From contig BCGN01000001.1 of the NCBI GenBank assembly GCA_001599295.1, positions 496,001-560,000 on the forward strand: DNA of 64,000 nucleotides, read 5' to 3'. This document shows positions 1,301-40,374 of the stretch, one piece after another. Source of the stretch: Sporopachydermia quercuum. Lineage: Eukaryota. The notes under the pieces were generated by a model. That model saw only the letters and a list, made by a program, of their open reading frames with translations. It searched no databases and had not been told where the DNA came from. The position numbers and the translations under genes are program-made. The stretch's first letter is position 1. The number at the start of each line of letters is the position of its first letter.

Positions 1301-2365
1301 ATGATGAATATTGCCACGAAAGGGGTTGTTGGATCTAGACCTCTTCTTTCATCTTACAGTAGCCTGTTTTTTGGCAGGACTGCCTCCTTTGGTAGAAGTA
1401 TCAGAGACTGTTATACCAACGTCAATCGAAGATACTATTCGCCACTAACAGGTATACCCTATGATCGTTCTGATACGTATCGCAAACACAACCTAGCGAG
1501 AACAACTGTTTTTGACAAGGCCCGACATGCACGAAAAGCGCATGTGGAATATACTTATGGGTCTGGTGATGTGTTGACTCATAACAGTCTCATCACGCAC
1601 AGCGATCCTATTGCCAGTATACTGGCTCAGCCAACAATTGTGATAGAGAGACAACTGGAGATGATGAACGTAATTCTTGGTTTTGAGCAGGCTAACAGAT
1701 ACGTTATTATGGATGTTAGTGGTAGTATTATTGGTTACATGTATGAAGAGGATTTTGGTATAGCTAAGGTGATATTAAGACAACTTTATAGATTGCATAG
1801 ACCATTTAAAGTGAGAGTAACTGACGTGAATGACAACCACTTGCTAACAATTTCCCGGAGATTTTCACTTATTAACTCTCACATTAAATGTATGTTGCCT
1901 ATTCAATCATCAGATTATGCCACAAATGAATTAGTAGTTGGAGAGTCAGTTCAGTCATGGCATTTATGGAGACGGCGTTANAACTTGTTCAGATGTGAGG
2001 ATAATGAACCAAGAAACGAGGTGTTTGAGCAATTTGGTAAGATTGACGCTCCTTTTCTATCCTTCTCTTTCCCTGTTGAAAATAGAAATGGTGAGGTGTT
2101 AGCATCTGTTGATAGGAATTGGGTTGGTTTAGGGCGTGAGTTTTTCACTGATACTGGTGTGTATGTTATACGTATGGACCCACAACAGAGTTTTTTAGGA
2201 ATGGAAGAACAATATGATCTAGGACACGGATTTGCCAGTCAGAGAGATATGATGAACTACGATCAAAGGGCAGTTATGTTGGCAACCGCTGTGAGTGTTG
2301 ATTTCGACTACTTTTCCAGACATAGTGGACGCGGAGGATTCTTATCTTTCGGTGCTGACGAGTAG
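1301..2365 (+). CDS. AIM25: Mitochondrial phospholipid scramblase-family protein
   Basis: 354-aa ORF with presequence-like N-terminus and motifs IERQLEMMNVILGFEQANRY, RQLYRLHRPF, QRAVMLATAVSVDFDYFSRHS. Confidence 0.9.
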   Translation: MMNIATKGVVGSRPLLSSYSSLFFGRTASFGRSIRDCYTNVNRRYYSPLTGIPYDRSDTYRKHNLARTTVFDKARHARKAHVEYTYGSGDVLTHNSLITHSDPIASILAQPTIVIERQLEMMNVILGFEQANRYVIMDVSGSIIGYMYEEDFGIAKVILRQLYRLHRPFKVRVTDVNDNHLLTISRRFSLINSHIKCMLPIQSSDYATNELVVGESVQSWHLWRRRXNLFRCEDNEPRNEVFEQFGKIDAPFLSFSFPVENRNGEVLASVDRNWVGLGREFFTDTGVYVIRMDPQQSFLGMEEQYDLGHGFASQRDMMNYDQRAVMLATAVSVDFDYFSRHSGRGGFLSFGADE

Positions 2366-2574
2366 GCTTCGAACAACAATATTAATTTTGGTTAAGATCA
2401 GCTTGCATAATGCGGCATAGTATAAATTTTCATGACATAGTGACGAGAGAAAGAATTGACTGTTTCAATCCTATATGGATTATTTACTTCAAGTTAATCT
2501 TCATGGATGTTCTCACATGATTGTTTTAATGGTGAGTATCTAATTTAGCTCATCTTCTGATCCAAATAAACTCC

Positions 2575-3934
2575 TCATTTATTCTGTGCACTTTCGAGCA
2601 ATACTTTCTGTGATTCATAGTTATTTTTAACTACAAGTCTTCTTTTCTCTTCAATCTTCTCATAAAATGGTTTGGTCCATCCCTCATACGTATATACTGC
2701 CCTCTATTTCTTCATATCTCTTTCCATAGACTTCTCCTGGTGCTGTTCATAGAAATAATTGATCGTTCGATCTTGTGGTCTAGAGTCACCCCCATCTGGA
2801 GTTTTACCAAGAAAATAATTAACACCTTTGTAGTATTTCTTCATGGCATTGTGTAAAGCTGGTGGGATCGCTAACTCTTTTTTGGTTGAATTAGCGTATT
2901 TCAAACCTATGGGACTTGCTGGAGGGAACAACGATCGATTTCCATGGGTCATGAGGTTCAGTGGTCCAACATCATCTGGGTCTATTGTTAACTCTTTGTT
3001 TGTGGTTTTCTGTGAATAAATCAACGGGAGCATTGTACTGGCAGGTTGATCGTAAAATCCATAATCTTTTGAGCCTAAATATGCAGGTACAGTAAAAAGN
3101 TCTGGTAGTTGTGAGACATTATTCCTCGTTTGAAGTTTACTTCCAGTTTGCGGCAATCGTTGCAGTAAATATATAGTCAGTGACTCCAGCTCGTTATTCA
3201 GATTGTCATTCTTTTTTATGATGTTATTGAATATATGAAGACAACTGTTTTGATCGTCGTTATCTATATCGAATTGGTCTTCTGAGTCGCTTGCTTCTTC
3301 TGATGCCTCTGATGAGTATTTTCTAGATTCCATTACTCTGACGAATTTTTTCTTCTGTTGATAATTCTACTGACAACGGCTTTGGAATAATTGTGAGAGC
3401 TAGCCAAAGCTATACAAGTGACCATAGATTCTTTCTATTGCTTTCACATGCATAACAATGTGTGAGAAGAGCGCCTAGATTGGCTCTCAAATACCTTATG
3501 AATATCTTCTCTTCATATGATACCGAAGTTCTATATTTCGTTTTCATTGAGAAGTATAGTATATCATTGATAAGTTAAAGGACACTTAGTCTCCTTCTTC
3601 TTTTCAGTATGGTACATTTTGAATATGCTACAAGGTATAGGAATAGAGCTTTCATTTTAGCTCTAGATTCTATTACCCTGTTTTCTGTAAGCTATACTCT
3701 CGTTTCTTGAATATTCTCGTTCGAATAATCCAACATTGCATGATTGAATAGTTTAAAAACTTCTTCAACCCTTCCTATCCCTATTCCTGGTGAAAATGCT
3801 GCCCTGAAATAGATCTGAAACGGTTTCAGTAGCTCTGATAGCTTTTCGTTAAAACTTCTTTGAGAAGTACTTTTGTTGCGATGGTTATTTTTCTCTTCGC
3901 CCTGTTTATTGGTTGGTATTGTATTCTTGCTCAT
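2575..3934 (-). pseudogene. Disrupted CID-domain, CHERP/SCAF6-like splicing factor
   Basis: The frame from ATG 3934 continues through TAG 3692-3694, TAA 3575-3577 and TAG 3410-3412 (ENIQETRV*LTEN...RRLSVL*LINDILYF...WSLV*LW), matching a CID domain. A +1 shift near the T6 run at 3346-3351 joins ORF 2704-3333 (FYDQPASTMLPLI). After TAG 2704-2706 it reads RAVYTYEGWTKPFYEKIE to TGA 2575-2577. Confidence 0.75.
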
Positions 3935-4710
3935 TTTGACTTCCTTGGTTTTCTGCTAGGTGTTTATTATGCTATTTTGTTGATGTGTCATAGGTGATAA
4001 TAGTAGCTTCTGCGATACTGAAGTATTGTCCATCAATTGAAACAGGATAGATAGATTTCGAATATTAATATGTGAGAGGGTTTTATTTCTAATAAAACCA
4101 AGTATCTGGACACCTTCTTAGCTAGTTTAACTAACTTCTGTTGGCTGACCTAGGTTTGAATCTCTGGGTCTTCAATTCGTGTATTCAGCACGGTTGATCT
4201 TCCTGTCAAACCGGTATGGATATCAATCAGTCGTACATGTCGTCAATTTCTGTTGATACAAATATATCTATGTTATTATCATAGGAGACAGTATTATTGT
4301 TGTTCTTGATTGCCGCTTGACAGTGATCAGTATTAGAATATGCTCTTAGTTTCTAGTTAATCAGTGGCTCAATGTTTTAAAAATGGGTTTCGCGTCTCCC
4401 ACTAAGGCGACCAAAGGAGGGAAATTGAAAGATACTAAAATACAAAGCATATGCAAATAAATCAGCACTAACACCCATAATTCTAATTTATAGAGAGGCA
4501 ATGAACAGCCACTTAGTTGTCCAAAGAGCTAGGCATTCTAATGTATCAATAAACATCGATTAGAATATCATACTAGATTACCATCATGTAATATAGGTGG
4601 TGCTATTTGTCCTCTTATACTTGATTTGAGAACTATCGATTTGCTTGTCCTTAGTCAATTCTGAGACTTCTCCAGTTTTAATCCATCTCGATTGATTAGA
4701 ATAGGTAATC

Positions 4711-5792
4711 ATGTCAAGCGGTGGATGGAACACAATCGAATCAGACTCCGTAAGTATCTCATGTAACAGGTAGTGTATTATCCAGCATTTCCAGTTAGCG
4801 GTAAAACAGTCAGGACCGAAATTAAAACTCACATCAAGGTTGCTTATTCTAATAATATACAGGGTGTCTTTACTGAATTAATTGAATCACTAGGAGTCAA
4901 AGGTCTACAGTTTGAAGAATTACTGAGCATTGACTATGATAGTCTCAAATCAATTGGGTCAGAAATATATGGACTGGTTTTACTATTCAAATATGGAGAT
5001 TATGCCTATAGTGCACATGGTGATCTAAGTAGGATTTCTGACGACGAACAAAGGGACAAAGGTATATTCTTTGCCAAACAGAAAATACAGAACGCATGTG
5101 CAACACAAGCAGTACTCAATATTCTCATGAATATCGACACAGATACGAAAGAGGACATACAATACGGCGAAACGGAAGTCCACAAAAACAACAAAGGTGA
5201 TATTCAAATAGGAGAAAGTCTCAAGGAATTCAAATCGTTTGTTGGATTATTTGATTCTGATATGAAAGGCGAAGTTATCTCCAATTCCGATCTCATTCGT
5301 AACACTCATAATTCATTTTCAAATCCAACAGCATTTGTAGATGAAAGTGTCACCAAACCTAGATCAAGTGATGACGATGGATTATATCATTTTATTGCAT
5401 ATACAAAGTCTCCCAGTGAAAATGCGGTAATAGAGTTAGATGGACTACTCGATGCTCCTATTAGACATAGTTCCTTTGATTCATATGATGATTATTTGAA
5501 AATATTATCCAAAGTTATTCAAGATAGAATTGCGATGTTCCCTTTAGGTGAGATCAGATTCAATGTAATGGCATTGATCAAAGACAAGAGGGTAGTTTAC
5601 GCTCTAGAAAACAACCACATAGCACTAGAGATTGAATTAGAGAAACGAGAGAAGTGGAAACGCGAGAATGAGTTAAGAAGATTTGACTACTTCGAATTAA
5701 TTTATAAATTGATTAAAGCTTACAGTGGTCAAAAATCCGACGAAGAATGGAATGATTGTTTGAATAAAGCAAAGGAAAAGACGAGACGATAG
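4711..5792 (+). CDS. UCH37: Ubiquitin C-terminal hydrolase, UCH37/UCH-L5 type; exons 4711-4749 and 4863-5792
   Basis: Intron 4750-4862 (GTAAGT...TTCTAAT...CAG) restores MSSGGWNTIESDS|GVFTELI. Catalytic motifs QNACATQA, YHFIAY and ELDGL are present, plus the UCH37-type C-terminal tail EKREKWKRENELRRFDY. Confidence 0.88.
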
Positions 5793-16224: not shown

Positions 16225-18060
16225 TTAATGAAGCATCCATTCTTCTTCTGGTATAGGCTTTGAGTACTTCTTATTGAACAATTGACTGACATTCATAACC
16301 GGATCAGACCTACTAAGACCTACCATTCGTCTCTTGATGTACAAGAAACCACGAACATATCCTTGAGAAATAAGACTAGTACATAAACCCTCAATTTCTA
16401 AATCAACGTCATTTTGTCCTTTAATTCTGTTTTCAGCACCCTCTAGAGACTCTCTTAGTAATAGTCCTGACATTGGAACAAGATTCAACTCCTGTTCGAA
16501 AGTATGATTAGCACCCAGAATGGTATCTAAAAGCTGCTTCAAACCGTAGAGATTATTCTGTAGCTTTATCCCATTAGTTGTATTTCCGGTTTGAAATCCA
16601 TTTTGGACGAAGAAGCCAGATACATTTTCTGCGCCCTGTATAGTTGAAAATAATAGTGCATGCTTAATCAAATCATAAGGTAATTCATGACTATTCATAA
16701 CGCTAAGTTGAAAGTTTGCTAACTGACTAATTAAAGATCGCATGATTAGTAGAGGAAAAGTATTCATAATCAATATTAGCACTTCATGGCTGTGAAAATA
16801 CTGATGATAATTGGTTATATGAGTGATATATTGCCCAAAGTTTCCGTACTTCACACTTTCAACTAAAGGGAGTATTTCGTCCTGTAACCCAAATACTGCT
16901 AGAGTTTGCCTTTTGGGTAAAATGCCTCTGATTATGGAACAAATAGATAAATACCTCAGGATTCGTCTAGTGTTTCGTTTAGTACTTGATACATTTAAAT
17001 TTCCATTAACATCATTCAATATTTCCTTAAAAGCAGTGAACAGATGATTGTAAGATTGGGAGAAGTTGTATTCCAGTATGTAGTACTTTCCAATTGCATA
17101 GCGATACTCAATCATTTCGCTCTTCGGATAATCAGAATACTTCAAATCAGATGGGCTGTATCTACCAAACGCATCAACACTTGTTTGACGTTTGCTCACG
17201 GAAGATGGGTCAACAGAATTTTTTAGTGTGTTGTCAATTGCAGCCAATACAGGCTTGAATAAGTTATAAGTTTTATTATGCATGAATATTCTAAACTGCT
17301 GATTGGTAACAAAAAACAATAACCCTTTCTTCGTTGACCAGAGCTTTTGTTGCTTTGGTGGTATATTGCTACCACTGTAATTAATATTTTGCCCCGCTGG
17401 AGATGAATCATTTCCTACTATTTTTCGATCGTTCCTTATAGTACCGGATATGTTGTTCAATAGAAAGGCTATTCTTGATGATCTCGGGGGTTGTTTAAAT
17501 GTTGGAGAGTAAACATCGTCCAACTTCATAGATAATGGGACCACCAATTTGATAATTGACTTTAAAACTCTTTGGAATAGAATACCAATGCTATTAGAGT
17601 AGCATGAGCTTAAAACTGAGAATATAGCTTCCAATAATTCAAAAGTCAAACATTCATCTTGTGGATTGACGTTCTTACAGAAGTTTAGGTATTCTTTAAC
17701 TAAAGCATCAAATGATGGCCAATCTCCATCAAAAAACTTAGTTTTTGCAATAACCGCCTCGATTTTTATTTTATTCTAGAATATATTAGTAGATAAACAA
17801 CAGAATAAAAGCAATCGAGTAAGAAATAATATTCCACGTTTACTAATTACCGAGGAGGTACCATTAACCTCAAATCAGCTCACTTGACTTACCTCTATAA
17901 TGTTGTTTTGTAGAGATGCTACATGACCGTCAGTCAAGGTAAATGTAAACAAAGTATCAAGTCCTAGTTGCAATTCAAGTAGTTTCTGTGGATTTTGAGT
18001 GTATTCATTAGTAGAATTTTTGATCTGGTTCAGCAAAGTTTGAACATCAATGATACGCAT
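16225..18060 (-). CDS. THP1: PCI-domain protein, Thp1/PCID2 (TREX-2)-like; exons 18060-17893 and 17775-16225
   Basis: Intron 17776-17892 (GTAAGT...TACTAAT...TAG) joins ORFs 17875-18066 and 16225-17649 in frame (WPSFDALVKEYLNFCKNVNP). PCI-family motifs YPKSEMIEYRYAIGKYY and IEGLCTSLISQGYVRG. Confidence 0.72.
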
Positions 18061-18898
18061 CTTCAATGTCTAATCAAAATCTACCAAGATCTGCCTACGC
18101 AGTACACAATCAAATGTGGGTCGAAATGGTCACTATTGAGTTTTTCTAGTTACCTTCTCGACAGCCTAATTTGAAACAAATACATATTTATCTGTATAGA
18201 TAATCATATATGAACATTATAAGAAGTATAGAAACCAAATCAATATCATTGTTTATTTTATGTTGCGCACCCTGCGTTTTTTCGTTTTTAGGCATTCCAC
18301 ATGGTCTCCGCTATTTGATTACAGCAAATATTTCGGAAACTATTTACCATGGAGCTCATCTTCAGGTGGTGGAAGCATCAAACCAATATACTTATCTGGA
18401 GGAATTAACGTTGGCAAGGATAGAATTGTATATGACTTAGAATAAACAAGTCGAATGGGAATGAAAGGAAACTGGATTGAAAGAGGTTGTTTTTGGTAAA
18501 TAATGATCAACTAGAGAAAGGCAAAGGTTTAAAGCTGACGGTTTGCAATAACATGATCTTTCGCTGGAATTAGAAACCATTGTATTGTATGTTGAAGAGA
18601 AATAAGATAGGAGGATCAATGTGCCGATTTATTAGCAAATAGAACAGAGTGGACTATTTAGGAAGGTTTTATGAGTTAGTGAGAGTTTCCTCCTCCATAG
18701 ACATTGCTTTGCTCTCCAGAAACCAAGTAGATATAGGTACCAGAAGACATCTCATATCTTCCAATCAACCATTCTATGTTCGATTAAGTACTAACGCTGA
18801 AAATCACAGATCATATTAGAGTCATTTTATTCTAACTGATAGAGGGTAGTTTTACTTGAGAGAATTTATTATACCGTTTGTTCTTCAAGTAAGACAGT

Positions 18899-20200
18899 AT
18901 GGAAAAACCAGGACTTCCTTTAACACCAGTTAGAGATTCTAGAGGGTTGATATTGCAAAGAAATGGTCGCAATGTTGACAACGATAAAATGAAAAAGATC
19001 AAGACTCGTCTTGCAGATGCAGGAATTTTAAGGAAAGAGCAAGGAGAAGAGTTTGTTGTTTTAAACAATTCAGAAGAATCTTCTCACAATTTGTACTCAA
19101 AGCTATCAAACTCCCAAACAGTTTATATTCATTCAACAGAACATCAATTAAAACAATCTATTGAAAACAAAATCAAGAACGACATAAATGAAGGTACTGT
19201 TATTAAAGTTCAANTGCTTAGAAACGAACTCAACACAGATATGTTTGTATCCTCAAATTCAGAAGAGAATAGTGCTTGGTATCAACAATATGGAATACCC
19301 ATTCAATATAGATTAGGTCCTATTGGTTCAAAGAGTGAGCTTGTAGATGCTAAATTTTTTACTGAAGGTGAAATAACTAGTTCTCCCGTTTATCGTATGT
19401 TTTTGTTAGCAAATACAATATTTCTAGAAGAGGGGAAGGATAAGAGTAAGAGTAAGGGTAACGCAGCAGTAAAAGCTAGAAAGAGTGCTTTGGATAGGAG
19501 TATCAAATCTCTCAAATCAAACTCAAGGGGCAAAGAAAGAGAAGTGTTAAAAGATAAGTCAAAAGGCTCAGGAAAGATAAAATCTAAATCAAAACCAAAG
19601 ACCAAGTCAAAATCTAAAATGAAAGATAAGCCCAAAGAAAGAGCAAAAGAAAGAAACGGCAACAAGACAAACAATATAGAATCGAAGAAAGATAATGCCA
19701 ATGTGAGTGCACATAGAAATGACCGGAAAGATTTAAGAGAAAGCTCAACTATGAATAAAGTGTCGTCAAAATCGAGGTCAAGATCAAGGAGGACGAGACA
19801 ATCTAAGAATAAATTATCTGAAACGAATATATCTGAGCAGAAAAGCTCATCAAAAGCAGATGCCAACTACATTTCTAAAACAAACATTCAGCTGAATAGG
19901 GATCAAACAAATCTCAAGAGTACCGAGAAAACAGAAAAAGACGATTCGGTTAACAAGAGAAGGAAAGACTCTAGAAAACAGTTTAAAAATAAAAAAGAGT
20001 CAGGAAGATCAGACCAGAAAGGCCAAAAACCTGAGAAACCATCATCTAAACCTGGATTGAAACCCAAATCAGAAGATATCACCGATAACCCAAGTTGTAA
20101 AGGAAANAGTTCCTCAAGCCAAGTCAGTGAAACGGACAATTCATCTCAGAATAAGAAGCATCAAAACAGGAAACGAAAACCTAAGCGTTCAAACGACTGA
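18899..20200 (+). CDS. Hypothetical protein with a Lys/Ser/Arg-rich low-complexity C-terminal half
   Basis: 433-aa ORF; I recognise no family. A TACTAAC...CAG splice-acceptor signal at 18789-18809 leaves the 5' structure unresolved. Confidence 0.6.
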   Translation: MEKPGLPLTPVRDSRGLILQRNGRNVDNDKMKKIKTRLADAGILRKEQGEEFVVLNNSEESSHNLYSKLSNSQTVYIHSTEHQLKQSIENKIKNDINEGTVIKVQXLRNELNTDMFVSSNSEENSAWYQQYGIPIQYRLGPIGSKSELVDAKFFTEGEITSSPVYRMFLLANTIFLEEGKDKSKSKGNAAVKARKSALDRSIKSLKSNSRGKEREVLKDKSKGSGKIKSKSKPKTKSKSKMKDKPKERAKERNGNKTNNIESKKDNANVSAHRNDRKDLRESSTMNKVSSKSRSRSRRTRQSKNKLSETNISEQKSSSKADANYISKTNIQLNRDQTNLKSTEKTEKDDSVNKRRKDSRKQFKNKKESGRSDQKGQKPEKPSSKPGLKPKSEDITDNPSCKGXSSSSQVSETDNSSQNKKHQNRKRKPKRSND

Positions 20201-28121: not shown

Positions 28122-28754
28122 TTAAGCCACTATTGAAATAGGATTACTATCAACATTTTCCGTCACTTTTGCAGTCTCCGGTTCTTCTTTCAAACTGATA
28201 GTGCTTCTGGACAAACTGATATTGGTTTCAATCTTTGGTTCTTCTTCTTCTTCCTCCTCCTCTTCAGAGGAGGATGATGAGTAAGATAGGCCTGGAATTG
28301 TTTGTGTTTTTGACAAATCCAAACCATCATTTTCCTCAAGATCTAATGTTGGCATAAGTCTATAAGAATTTCGAACCGACTCTATATCATTGTTGGTGTT
28401 TCTTGAACTGATAATGAAGTCTTCATCAAAATCGTAATCTGAATCTGATTCGAAATCTGAATCTGAGTCGTAGAGATATTCTTCTTCTTCGTATTCTGAA
28501 TCATAACTGATCGTAGTTTCAGGAACAGTTTCGAGTGTTCTATTTGGTAAAGAAAAGGAAACTTTTCTCGGTATGGTTTCATTCATTGATTCTCTTAATT
28601 GTGGTTTATTGCTTGTACTAATGTGATCCATTAAATAGTCCAGCATATTTGCGTGTGATACCAACTTCCGTAGATCATGATCTGGCTTGGATGCTTCTCT
28701 TGTCAGCTTGGTCTTGGCCTTAGAAGCCAGAATNTAGGCCTCAGTTATCGACAT
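28122..28754 (-). CDS. Ecm13/YJR115W-like protein
   Basis: N-terminal motif LASKAKTKLTREASKPDHDLRKLVSHANMLD followed by an acidic low-complexity tail. Confidence 0.75.
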   Translation of the reverse strand: MSITEAXILASKAKTKLTREASKPDHDLRKLVSHANMLDYLMDHISTSNKPQLRESMNETIPRKVSFSLPNRTLETVPETTISYDSEYEEEEYLYDSDSDFESDSDYDFDEDFIISSRNTNNDIESVRNSYRLMPTLDLEENDGLDLSKTQTIPGLSYSSSSSEEEEEEEEEPKIETNISLSRSTISLKEEPETAKVTENVDSNPISIVA

Positions 28755-31700
28755 TATAGTAGTAAATGGATTGATGGTAAGTGCGTATGTATGTATAGTG
28801 TACGCGTTGCTTTGCCCCTTGATGTGTCAGGGTATTGAGATTCTATTCAACTGAGTTAGTTTTGTTTTGCTTACTGATGAATGCTTATTCTTAAAATATC
28901 TGCCTCCTTTTATATTTTTATCACATCGGTAATTGATATCATTATCAAACAGGAAAGTCCCTTATATATATATTATCTTGTAAGTGGAACTTCTTCCAAA
29001 ATGAATCATTCAAAACCGTTAAATGCGTTATGTATACTGTTAGCTCTTGGTATAAGTATCCACATTAGTAATATATGAACCTTAATTAACCACAAAGGTG
29101 CGTTAAAACCTTATTAGATGCGTGTGGCGTTAAGTCCTCTTCCTCCTTGCTTCATCAGACGAAACGAGCGAGTAAGTCTGGAGACAGACCATCTTGAACT
29201 ACAAAGCGAATACTAATTAATTAAATGACATAGGGACTTTTCGCTTGGGTGTATTATGATCAGCAATGATTTCATACCACTTACCAAAGTCTCCGTAGTC
29301 AAGTAGCGAGTTATCAGAATATTCCTGAAACTATATTCACAGTTAAGGTAGTTGTTACTTACCTCAGTTAATTAATAGTGAGACAGGCCGGTATATTATG
29401 CCGTCCTTCATCGGGTATACTTCTATTGCTCTTATAATCAATCATAAACAATGATAAAAATAAAGATATAAAGTTCAATTTAATCTAATTTAATGCTTGA
29501 AAATTATGGTTGGTTGTTGTAATCAATTTTCCAACATTTCTTTAACGTTCCTGGTTAGTTCGTAAAATGACAGTTTGATTATAAATCCAATTCCGCCCCA
29601 ACTACGCAAAGCATTACGTTACGATAATATTAAAACATAACGTAATATAACACAAAAAAATATAATATAATGTAGTATAACAACCGTATCTCACTGCGTG
29701 GTAGCCAATCTAACCGTTGGTGTTAATAAACTGTATGAGTCACCAGTGACATACCTAGGCTCCCACAACGGCTATTTGCTGTAGTAGATAGTCGCAACAG
29801 GATTAATCAGTGTGGCTAGGAACTTAAATTCATACCGGAATAGGGCATTTGCCGAGAATAGCCGTTTGCAGGTTTTCCCTCTGAAAAATTAGTAATGTGG
29901 CTTACTCATAATAAATGGTTGATTGTCTAGTTAGTAAACATTCATATGATTGAACCTCAATATGAACAACTTGAAAATGTGAGGTATACATACCATAGTA
30001 CTCTGAAAAAAGTAGATAAATTCATCTCATTGACTTCAATCAAAGGACGGGAAAGTAACCATTACCCTTCAATCAGCAATACTCAATGATTATAATTTTT
30101 TAAGTACAACAACAGACTGATCATATCCGCAAGATCATCTCGTAGATAATCTCTAAGTACTTTTTCGGCTCATTGTTTATTGATAAACAGCTCTAGTTAA
30201 CAAATCATTTTTAGCTGACAAATAAAGTTTCTGTGATTCTTCTATTGACCTTTAAACATCCATATTAGGTAACTACGTACTAAAAGTTTTTCAAAAACGC
30301 TACCGAAAGAGTTCGTTCCCGTAAAGTTTATTAATTGTTGGCATTAGAAGTTACCATATACGGGCTTCGACGTTCTGAGATATTGGTCTACAAATGATTG
30401 GGAATAGTTCCCTTCTAACTTCTAATGTGTTCTGATAGGTAAGACAGGCTATAATTAACTATCGTTGGTTAGCGTAGAAAGTTTAGTGAAAGAATTAATT
30501 CAGGGAGGCTTGAGATAGCTTTTGAATATTTATTTTTAAAGTATCTGCAAAGGGATAGAAAAGGTGTATTTGCATCTTTGNTATCTCATATCGAAAGTCT
30601 TTTTACTTCTGTACCAAGTGACCATCATATTTTCCAAGTTTTCTCATTCACTACAACATCAATTCGTTTATTTAAAAGTGGAAAGTCCCAATATTCTAAC
30701 TAGTTTTTTATTCCTGTTCAAATATTATACCTATATGTCCTGTTGTGTAGGTTATACAGTTTAACAATCATTTGATCTATAACCGTTGAATTACCTATTT
30801 TGTAACTAGAATGAAAACTATAAGGAGAACTTCCCACTGATTTGAATCAATTGACTTGCTGAGGTAATCTAATGATGAAGAAATCTGGATTTACTGGGAT
30901 ATATTAGGAAATCTCTTGTATCCTGTTTTGATTATTCGGCCAACGATTTGTCTCATTTAGTCAGCTAATTGCTTCAACTGTAAATCAAAACTTCAGCCAA
31001 TGATACGATACTTCTACTAGACTTGGAGTCCTATGTACACCAACCAGTGCTATGAGTCAATTGATTTCAAATGATGTGTATATGGTTCAGCTCTCGGCAA
31101 TGGACTAAACATTAAAGTGCTCAATATCTCCAGTTCTGAAAGTCGGCATGAAAAACCTAATAGACAGATTTGATTCCATTCCAATATTAATGAAGTTACA
31201 CACTATTAATGTATGATGATCATGTTGATATGCTGAGGGTGAGGGTAACGTGTTGTTGTTTTCCTATTCCCTTAGTAATTGATAATTTGATCTTCTTTTG
31301 TAAATCGGCTGGTTTTACCTATTTCAACATCTTTAACGATTGTTAATACTATTTGCACAATTTATCTGTTATTGATATGCATCATCTCAATCTGCCTATC
31401 CTTGCGTAGATTTATGTAGCTCATTATCACGTGCCACACCGCGGCAGAGAAATCCTATCTCCGCCCTCCAGAATACTCTCTCCATGCAAATTTCTTACAG
31501 AATTCTGCATAGATAATATTTGAACAAGACAAAAATCCTGAAATGCTTATTGACCAATTTAACAAATCTGATATACTGTTAATAAAATCCTTCTCACTGA
31601 AAGCGCAGGGATTATCATTTATGGGGGAGCATCGATTTCCACTTACTTCCATTTTTTTCACTCATCCCGGCAATCTTTCAAAGGGTCACTGGTGATTTTA

Positions 31701-39193: not shown

Positions 39194-40374
39194 ATGGTTC
39201 CCAAGAAAACAACCAGATATTTTCCTGGGAAAGCTGACAAGGCACAACAGACGTCAAACTTCGACTCATCTTCAGATTCAAATGGATCTGAAATCGAAAA
39301 TGAAGTTCAAGTAACAGAAGTGAAGAGCCAACCCAAAGATAGAAGGGTTCAAGGAATTCCAGGCAATAAGAATTTGCCAACAGAGGGAAATGGGAATAGG
39401 CTACAAATAAACAAGACAGAACAAAAAGAAGAGAGCAGTGAATCTGAAGGAAACGAATGCGAGGAGTCTTCTGATGAACAAACAAATAGCGGTGACAACA
39501 AAAGGGACTCAGACAGCAAAGAAGACTCATCAGAATCGGATACAGACGAAGAATCAGAATCAGGATCGGAATCATCAGACTCTAATGTACTAATACGACC
39601 AGTGTTCATTTCAAAGTAAGTAATTATTTGCTAATCAATAAGATAAATTTATCCGTTCTGTGAGCAAAATGTCTAACCATATACATCTACAGGAAATCAA
39701 GAGCCACGAAAAAAAAAGGACAACAGAACGAGCAAGAAAAGGCGAGGTTAAAAGAACAAAGTATCAAAGAAATAGAACAGCACATAAAGCGGCAACAAAA
39801 TGAGATGAGCAGAGACGAATCAACAGAAGATTTGCAAGGTGTGGATGATACGGATGACTTAGATCCTGAACAAGAGAAAGCTGCATGGAAACTACGAGAA
39901 CTAAAGAGAGTTAAAAGAGAAAGAGAGCAACTTGAAGCAAAAGAAAATGAACTGGAAGAACTAGAAGCTCGTCGTTCGATGACCGAAGAAGAAAAAGAAG
40001 CTGAAGCGCGGAAGAAAATCGAAAAAGAGAAAAAAGAAAGAATGGAAAGAAACACGCCATACATACAAAAATACTATCACAAAGGTGCATATTATAGCGA
40101 GAAAGACTCTGAGCTATTCAATCGAGACTTAAATGACCCCAAACAGGACGAATTCCAAAACAGAACGATACCACCCAAAGCTTTACAGGTTAGGGATTCA
40201 ACTCAAGGGTTGAAAGGTAAAACGAAGTACAGAAGTTTAGCAGAAGAAGACACAAGTCGAGGCTCTTATCGATTTGCATTCACCCGATTCAATTCCTCAA
40301 ATACATATGGTTCCAAACGGAATGCTCATGATAGAGGTGAGCATAATGATGATCACAAGAGAAGAAGGTCATAG
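39194..40374 (+). CDS. SPP381: MFAP1/Spp381-family B-complex splicing factor; exons 39194-39615 and 39693-40374
   Basis: Intron 39616-39692 (GTAAGT...GTCTAAC...CAG) fuses two ORFs in frame. MFAP1 motifs RYFPGK, RPVFI, VDDTDD, AWKLRELKRVKRERE and QKYYHKGAYY. Confidence 0.85.

Follow-up and report, generated by a model that had tools for sequence, protein, structure and literature searches.

A Probable Pseudogene of a CID-Domain Protein in the Yeast Sporopachydermia quercuum

The Reading Frame and Its Surroundings

The 64,000-nucleotide stretch of Sporopachydermia quercuum DNA analyzed here (the window; assembly GCA_001599295.1, contig BCGN01000001.1, positions 496,001 to 560,000 of the forward strand) carries on its minus strand, from 3934 to 2575, a single read-through path of 452 codons that can be followed from an ATG to a terminal TGA if four in-frame stops are skipped and the frame is moved once (Table 1). 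The four internal stops are TAG or TAA in every case and TGA in none. Every lesion coordinate given in a preliminary description of this DNA (TAG 3692, TAA 3575, TAG 3410, a +1 shift, and TAG 2704) proved to be correct. Because the +1 frame is open from 3366 and the first frame is stopped at 3325-3323, the shift must lie within 3366-3326, and the likeliest site is the A6 run at 3351-3346, with one base in excess. Past the shift, the second open piece contains an acidic Ser/Glu/Asp stretch followed by the stretch FYDQPASTMLPL at 3057-3022 (minus strand), and an internal ATG at 3333 opens an ORF of 209 codons that ends at TAG 2704. The single ambiguous letter at 3100 is base 3 of a GAN codon (Asp or Glu).

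Table 1. Features of the 452-codon read-through path (positions in the window)
Feature	Position	Strand	Remarks
Start ATG	3934-3932	minus
First open piece, 80 codons	3695..3934	minus	Lys/Asn-rich N-terminus and beginning of the CID
CID domain, Pfam PF04818	3389..3733	minus	Read-through residues 68-182; profile positions 10-111 of 120
In-frame TAG	3694-3692	minus	Codon 81; within the 9-mer GTATAGCTT
In-frame TAA	3577-3575	minus	Codon 120; directly before LINDIL; Tyr strongly favored by the CID profile
In-frame TAG	3412-3410	minus	Codon 175; also within GTATAGCTT
Zone with both frames open	3326..3366	minus	Holds the +1 frame change
Second open piece, 220 codons	2707..3366	minus	+1 frame
TAG ending the first frame	3325-3323	minus
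In-frame TAG	2706-2704	minus	Codon 221 of the second part
Last 42 codons	2575..2703	minus	Include EGWTKPFYE at 2685-2659
Terminal TGA	2577-2575	minus

The path is far more open than its composition would allow by chance: it has 4 internal stops in 452 codons, whereas 2000 shuffles of the same DNA gave a mean of 33.1 (SD 5.3) and a minimum of 16. The six fixed frames of 2575-3934 contain 18-32 stops each, and none of them follows the composite path. A stop count this far below chance indicates a coding frame with few breaks and not random AT-rich DNA.

Two of the TAG codons share their immediate context, since the 9-mer GTATAGCTT, read as Val-stop-Leu, occurs on the minus strand at both 3689-3697 and 3407-3415. 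The window holds three copies of this word on both strands, compared with 0.59 expected, and three or more were seen in 5 of 100 shuffles. Possibly both sites once read Val-Trp-Leu and suffered the same G>A change; the pattern was seen post hoc, and chance is conceivable. Upstream of the start, an open stretch of 53 codons (3956-4117, minus strand) is in frame with the ATG and separated from it by one TAG (3956-3958). This stretch, which yielded no Pfam match, is probably due to chance, but it could be an additional decayed N-terminal part.

The surroundings contain several recognizable genes; the broken frame is flanked by a scramblase gene on one side and a UCH37-type gene on the other. The UCH37-type deubiquitinase (Peptidase_C12 and UCH_C) is encoded divergently at 4711-5792 on the plus strand, 777 bases from the ATG of the broken frame; its first exon (4711-4749) comprises 13 codons and is followed by a 113-base intron (4750-4862) in the local intron style, with a GTAAGT donor, a TTCTAAT branch site, and a CAG acceptor. 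An ORF at 39664-40371 (plus strand) strongly matches MFAP1 (microfibril-associated/pre-mRNA processing; Pfam E = 1e-48), with the gene start probably in an upstream exon, and the strength of the match indicates that at least one accessory splicing factor persists in this organism in well-conserved form. Three long open frames, of 516, 435, and 234 codons at 16228-17775 (minus), 18893-20197 (plus), and 28125-28826 (minus), have no Pfam match at E ≤ 1e-4. The window has 32 other ORFs of 110 codons or more. Pfam matches were found for 22 of them, in every case within a single open frame; broken frames are thus not typical of the assembly.

The CID and the Search for Relatives

When the first 189 codons of the repaired translation, with X at the stops, were compared with Pfam, the CID profile (PF04818) matched at 29.3 bits (E = 1.1e-6), above the curated gathering cut-off of 23.9 bits for this family, in agreement with the CID proposed for the N-terminal part in the preliminary description. 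The match is found in one of the three minus frames of the gene, the same frame as was used there, and Pfam searches of the minus frames of the gene flanks gave no CID. The score responds to the residues that are put in place of the stops. At the TAA, Tyr raises it to 37.4 bits (+8.1 relative to X) and Trp to 32.2 bits (+2.9), and Gln lowers it to 28.9 bits (-0.4); for TAG, Trp gives 32.6 bits (+3.3) and Gln 29.3 bits, the same as X; the combination of Trp for TAG with Tyr for TAA reaches 40.7 bits (E = 3.2e-10). Because Tyr and Trp raise the score, the stops concerned occupy profile-preferred residues: judged by the profile, the TAA before LINDIL stands where Tyr is strongly preferred, and Trp is favored at TAG 3692, at TAG 3410, or at both. 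Conserved core aromatics of the domain are present here only as stop codons one base off. Of the conserved Trp, Tyr, and Gln on which the stops had been said to fall, the Tyr and at least one Trp are borne out by these scores, which speak neither for nor against the Gln.

At the level of single sequences, the domain is remote from its structurally characterized relatives. For the CID part, phmmer listed six PDB chains at E ≤ 10, and none was a CID, also when the stops were read as Trp and Tyr. Over both parts of the gene, the phmmer rows from the PDB were at chance level only (TBC1D7, E = 0.1-0.25; a phosphatase, E = 0.36). The CID fold is an eight-helix right-handed superhelix. Two single-sequence AlphaFold2 models are all-helical and of low confidence (pLDDT 63.5 and 66.6); with the first of them, Foldseek found nothing in the PDB at E ≤ 0.001 and placed a SCAF4 CID at rank 41 (E = 2.1), and all hits from VIA-align were to generic helical structures (Z ≤ 9.3). 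Since the fold is not confirmed by single-sequence models, the CID is assigned from its sequence. What the gene has in common with other PF04818 proteins is profile positions 10-111 of 120, with stops at Tyr- and Trp-preferring positions; it differs from them in being broken and in being too divergent from solved CIDs, and from all library proteins, for single-sequence search.

Rtt103, Pcf11, and Nrd1/Seb1 are yeast CID proteins with solved CID structures in the PDB. They have the CID near the N-terminus, as here, and Rtt103 is also of similar size. None was matched by phmmer at E ≤ 10, however, and neither an RRM nor any further domain was detected in the present gene; the locus is possibly a decayed duplicate of one of them.

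Searches for relatives of either part came back empty. The first part had no match at E ≤ 0.001 in a full HMMER search of 1.84 billion representative proteins, and none of 400 candidates among longer proteins reached E ≤ 10. Pfam matched nothing in the second part (263 codons) at a threshold as lax as E ≤ 10, and phmmer gave no PDB match beyond chance level; none of 375 candidates among proteins of near length reached E ≤ 0.01, and none of 166 candidates among longer proteins reached E ≤ 10 with residues 89-263. In metagenome loci, 597 and 572 pattern matches to the two parts left none confirmed, and nothing usable in the ESM Atlas matched two unbroken pieces of 131 and 54 amino acids. The absence of any match among 1.8 billion library proteins indicates that the parent family is divergent, and it makes any living orthologues worth finding.

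Gene Decay and Rival Accounts of the Lesions

The locus at 2575-3934 is very probably an ordinary pseudogene of a CID gene of about 450 codons. It carries several disabling changes in a frame that otherwise has far fewer stops than expected by chance, and four stops together with a frame change leave no full-length protein by ordinary reading, so the preliminary description was right to call the gene broken. In the parent protein, a CID (RNA polymerase II CTD-interacting) would have followed a short, basic N-terminal part and preceded an acidic linker and a C-terminal region without a family match; in life, the protein most likely used the CID to bind either a peptide partner or a phosphorylated Pol II tail, and the C-terminal region to bind a second partner. 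Three nonsense changes lie within the CID, the frame shifts by one base shortly behind it, and the fourth nonsense change is close to the end of the path. Constraint was presumably lost some time ago, with about 5% neutral change since, and the locus would at present be without function.

Among all single-base changes that the sense codons of today could undergo, 5.8% produce a stop. Under neutrality, the four nonsense changes then correspond to about 69 substitutions, at about 0.05 per site (95% range 0.014-0.13). This suggests a species-level event of moderate age instead of a very recent loss or an accident in the laboratory, and the earlier wording of a "recent" pseudogene is to be softened to this extent, the pseudogene itself being upheld. 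Gene relics, or unitary pseudogenes, of yeasts are a known class; like the present locus, they consist of a single locus between intact neighbors, with several disabling changes and a recognizable frame, and the present case is unusual only in that the library searches detected no living relative of its parent family. Three points count against a pseudogene: sequence searches found no relative and thus provide neither an intact orthologue nor a dN/dS value; an intact second allele, or an intact copy in other strains, is conceivable, given that contigs drop minor alleles; and the 220-codon open piece, with its internal ATG, could give a product.

Introns do not remove the lesions, as far as sequence signals tell. 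Upstream of the lesions there is no donor of the GTAAGT type, and the only donor-like sites of the form GTRNGW on the minus strand of 2400-4100, at 2689 and 2516, are both downstream of all five lesions. A weak donor, GTATAG at 3415, was combined by hand with acceptors at 3370, 3338, and 3323, and the resulting introns of 46, 78, and 93 bases led to a wrong frame or a stop. With no suitable donors, and with the GTATAG trials failing to give an open frame, splicing was rejected as a rescue.

Alternatively, the lesions themselves might be illusory, either as sequencing or assembly errors or as one allele of a heterozygous diploid with an intact other allele. The window contains 33 single N letters, about 1 per 2 kb (e.g., at 407, 604, 1094, 1981, 3100, and 7092), which may be masked letters or may mark ambiguous or heterozygous assembly sites; none, however, falls on a lesion. 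Contigs from three runs of the same organism in two studies (2016 and 2023) each span 2300-4300 in one piece, at contig word depths of 23, 35, and 100, and agree with the window at every base, without a differing letter or a gap, so that all lesions recur identically; a run from another organism gave no contig that matched here. The comparison covers contigs, which may be from the same strain as the window, one of them may be its source, and minor alleles are dropped in contigs. Identical separate contigs therefore rule out an error of one assembly and leave strain-specific or heterozygous states. With five lesions in 1.36 kb, compared with none seen in the 22 Pfam-matched ORFs, we regard an artefact or a broken allele as very improbable. 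Still less credible is a working gene whose message is repaired, with A-to-I editing turning UAG and, by double editing, UAA into UGG, and with slippage at the A6 run. Filamentous ascomycetes are known to correct stops by editing in their sexual stages. In the present gene, TGA is absent from the four internal stops, which are all TAG or TAA, Trp at the TAGs adds 3.3 bits to the CID score, and a homopolymer run is found where the frame changes. The TAA position, however, prefers Tyr far over Trp, the UAA would need two edits, five independent repairs would be required for one protein, and efficient slippage generally needs a longer run than A6; stop-correcting editing is not known in yeasts. 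A gene conditionally restored in its RNA would be the first such editing substrate in a yeast, an outcome that we hardly expect.

A shorter surviving gene is improbable, if less so than either of these. The CID alone would be dead, and the 209-codon ORF from ATG 3333 to TAG 2704 would live on with a putative C-terminal partner-binding stretch; in keeping with this, the 220-codon piece is open and includes an ATG, it lies downstream of three of the four internal stops, and the frame change falls at its start. An open gap of this length among five random lesions is nevertheless expected about 1 time in 5 (hand calculation) and is thus no sign of selection. The final 42 codons with the EGW stretch would be lost, no family match and no homologue was found, and the G+C contents by codon position (0.45, 0.32, and 0.35) are not distinctive.

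A Tentative Link to CHERP

The preliminary description went further and derived the pseudogene specifically from a CHERP/SCAF6-type U2-associated factor, its decay marking the loss of the U2SURP-SPF45-CHERP module and thus giving a snapshot of spliceosome streamlining; we hold this as a tentative proposal, with the balance of likelihood against it. Human CHERP/SCAF6 is U2-associated and forms a complex with SR140/U2SURP and SPF45/RBM17. It has a CID and, far downstream, a short conserved stretch, an arrangement that the gene in the window would share. The motifs proposed for CHERP downstream of the CID are Y-D-x-P-A-x-x-M-x-P-L and then EGW...YE; the window contains FYDQPASTMLPL and then EGWTKPFYE, in that order. 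Full-length CHERP is far longer than the gene in the window. The residues of human CHERP are numbered to at least 740 (PMC13332222), compared with about 450 codons here, and a segment comprising residues 631-740 reportedly binds the SURP domain of SR140/U2SURP, with an AlphaFold3 model, crosslinks, and a pull-down as evidence (PMC13332222). If the gene was of CHERP type, its conserved C-terminal stretch may be the counterpart of CHERP 631-740, a putative binder of the SR140/U2SURP SURP domain, and the reported binding gives the C-terminal module a plausible role. A link to CHERP is also in keeping with the CID itself, both in its presence and in its being unlike all solved CIDs by phmmer, which fits a CID type without a solved structure. 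The retention of MFAP1-family and UCH37-type genes in the window, of which S. cerevisiae is not known to have close forms, points the same way.

The domain composition points in the opposite direction. Human CHERP has an N-terminal SURP domain at aa 1-75 (PMC4666396) and a G-patch domain near the C-terminus (PMC13332222), whereas neither was detected in the gene in the window. With Pfam at E ≤ 1, no SURP was found in any of the three minus frames of the gene (2575-3934), of the 777 bases upstream (3935-4711), or of the 210 bases downstream, a search that a decayed or very divergent copy might escape; nor did the minus frames of the gene, of 2366-2720, or of the 777 upstream bases yield a G-patch at this threshold. 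As both domains were looked for and neither was found, the gene is not a CHERP by domain membership: the CID part of a CHERP/SCAF6-like protein stands, with its match to PF04818, and the SURP and G-patch parts do not. Because the C-terminal half has no Pfam, PDB, or homologue match, its putative likeness to CHERP is confined to the proposed motifs. Among the papers listed in a literature search, CHERP and Saccharomycotina were named together in one only, with a single mention of CHERP, and nothing on fungal CHERP orthologues was found. More specifically, the locus may be what is left of a minimal adaptor of CHERP type, with a CID and a putative U2SURP-binding stretch but without SURP or G-patch, a reading about as likely as the link to CHERP itself.

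Taken as found, the locus is another yeast pseudogene, and its chief use is to stop annotators from calling two orphan ORFs genes; it would gain modest interest only from evidence that its parent belonged to a CHERP-type family. Accessory, proofreading-type splicing factors have been studied through fungi that keep them and fungi that lack them, as described in a preprint (bioRxiv 10.1101/2021.03.19.436190). If the parent was a CHERP-type partner of U2SURP, the pseudogene would be a datable trace of a yeast shedding such factors, and a form of CHERP without SURP and G-patch would once have existed. Should a minimal CHERP-type adaptor be the true parent, the pseudogene would put a date on when this lineage lost the U2SURP-SPF45-CHERP module.
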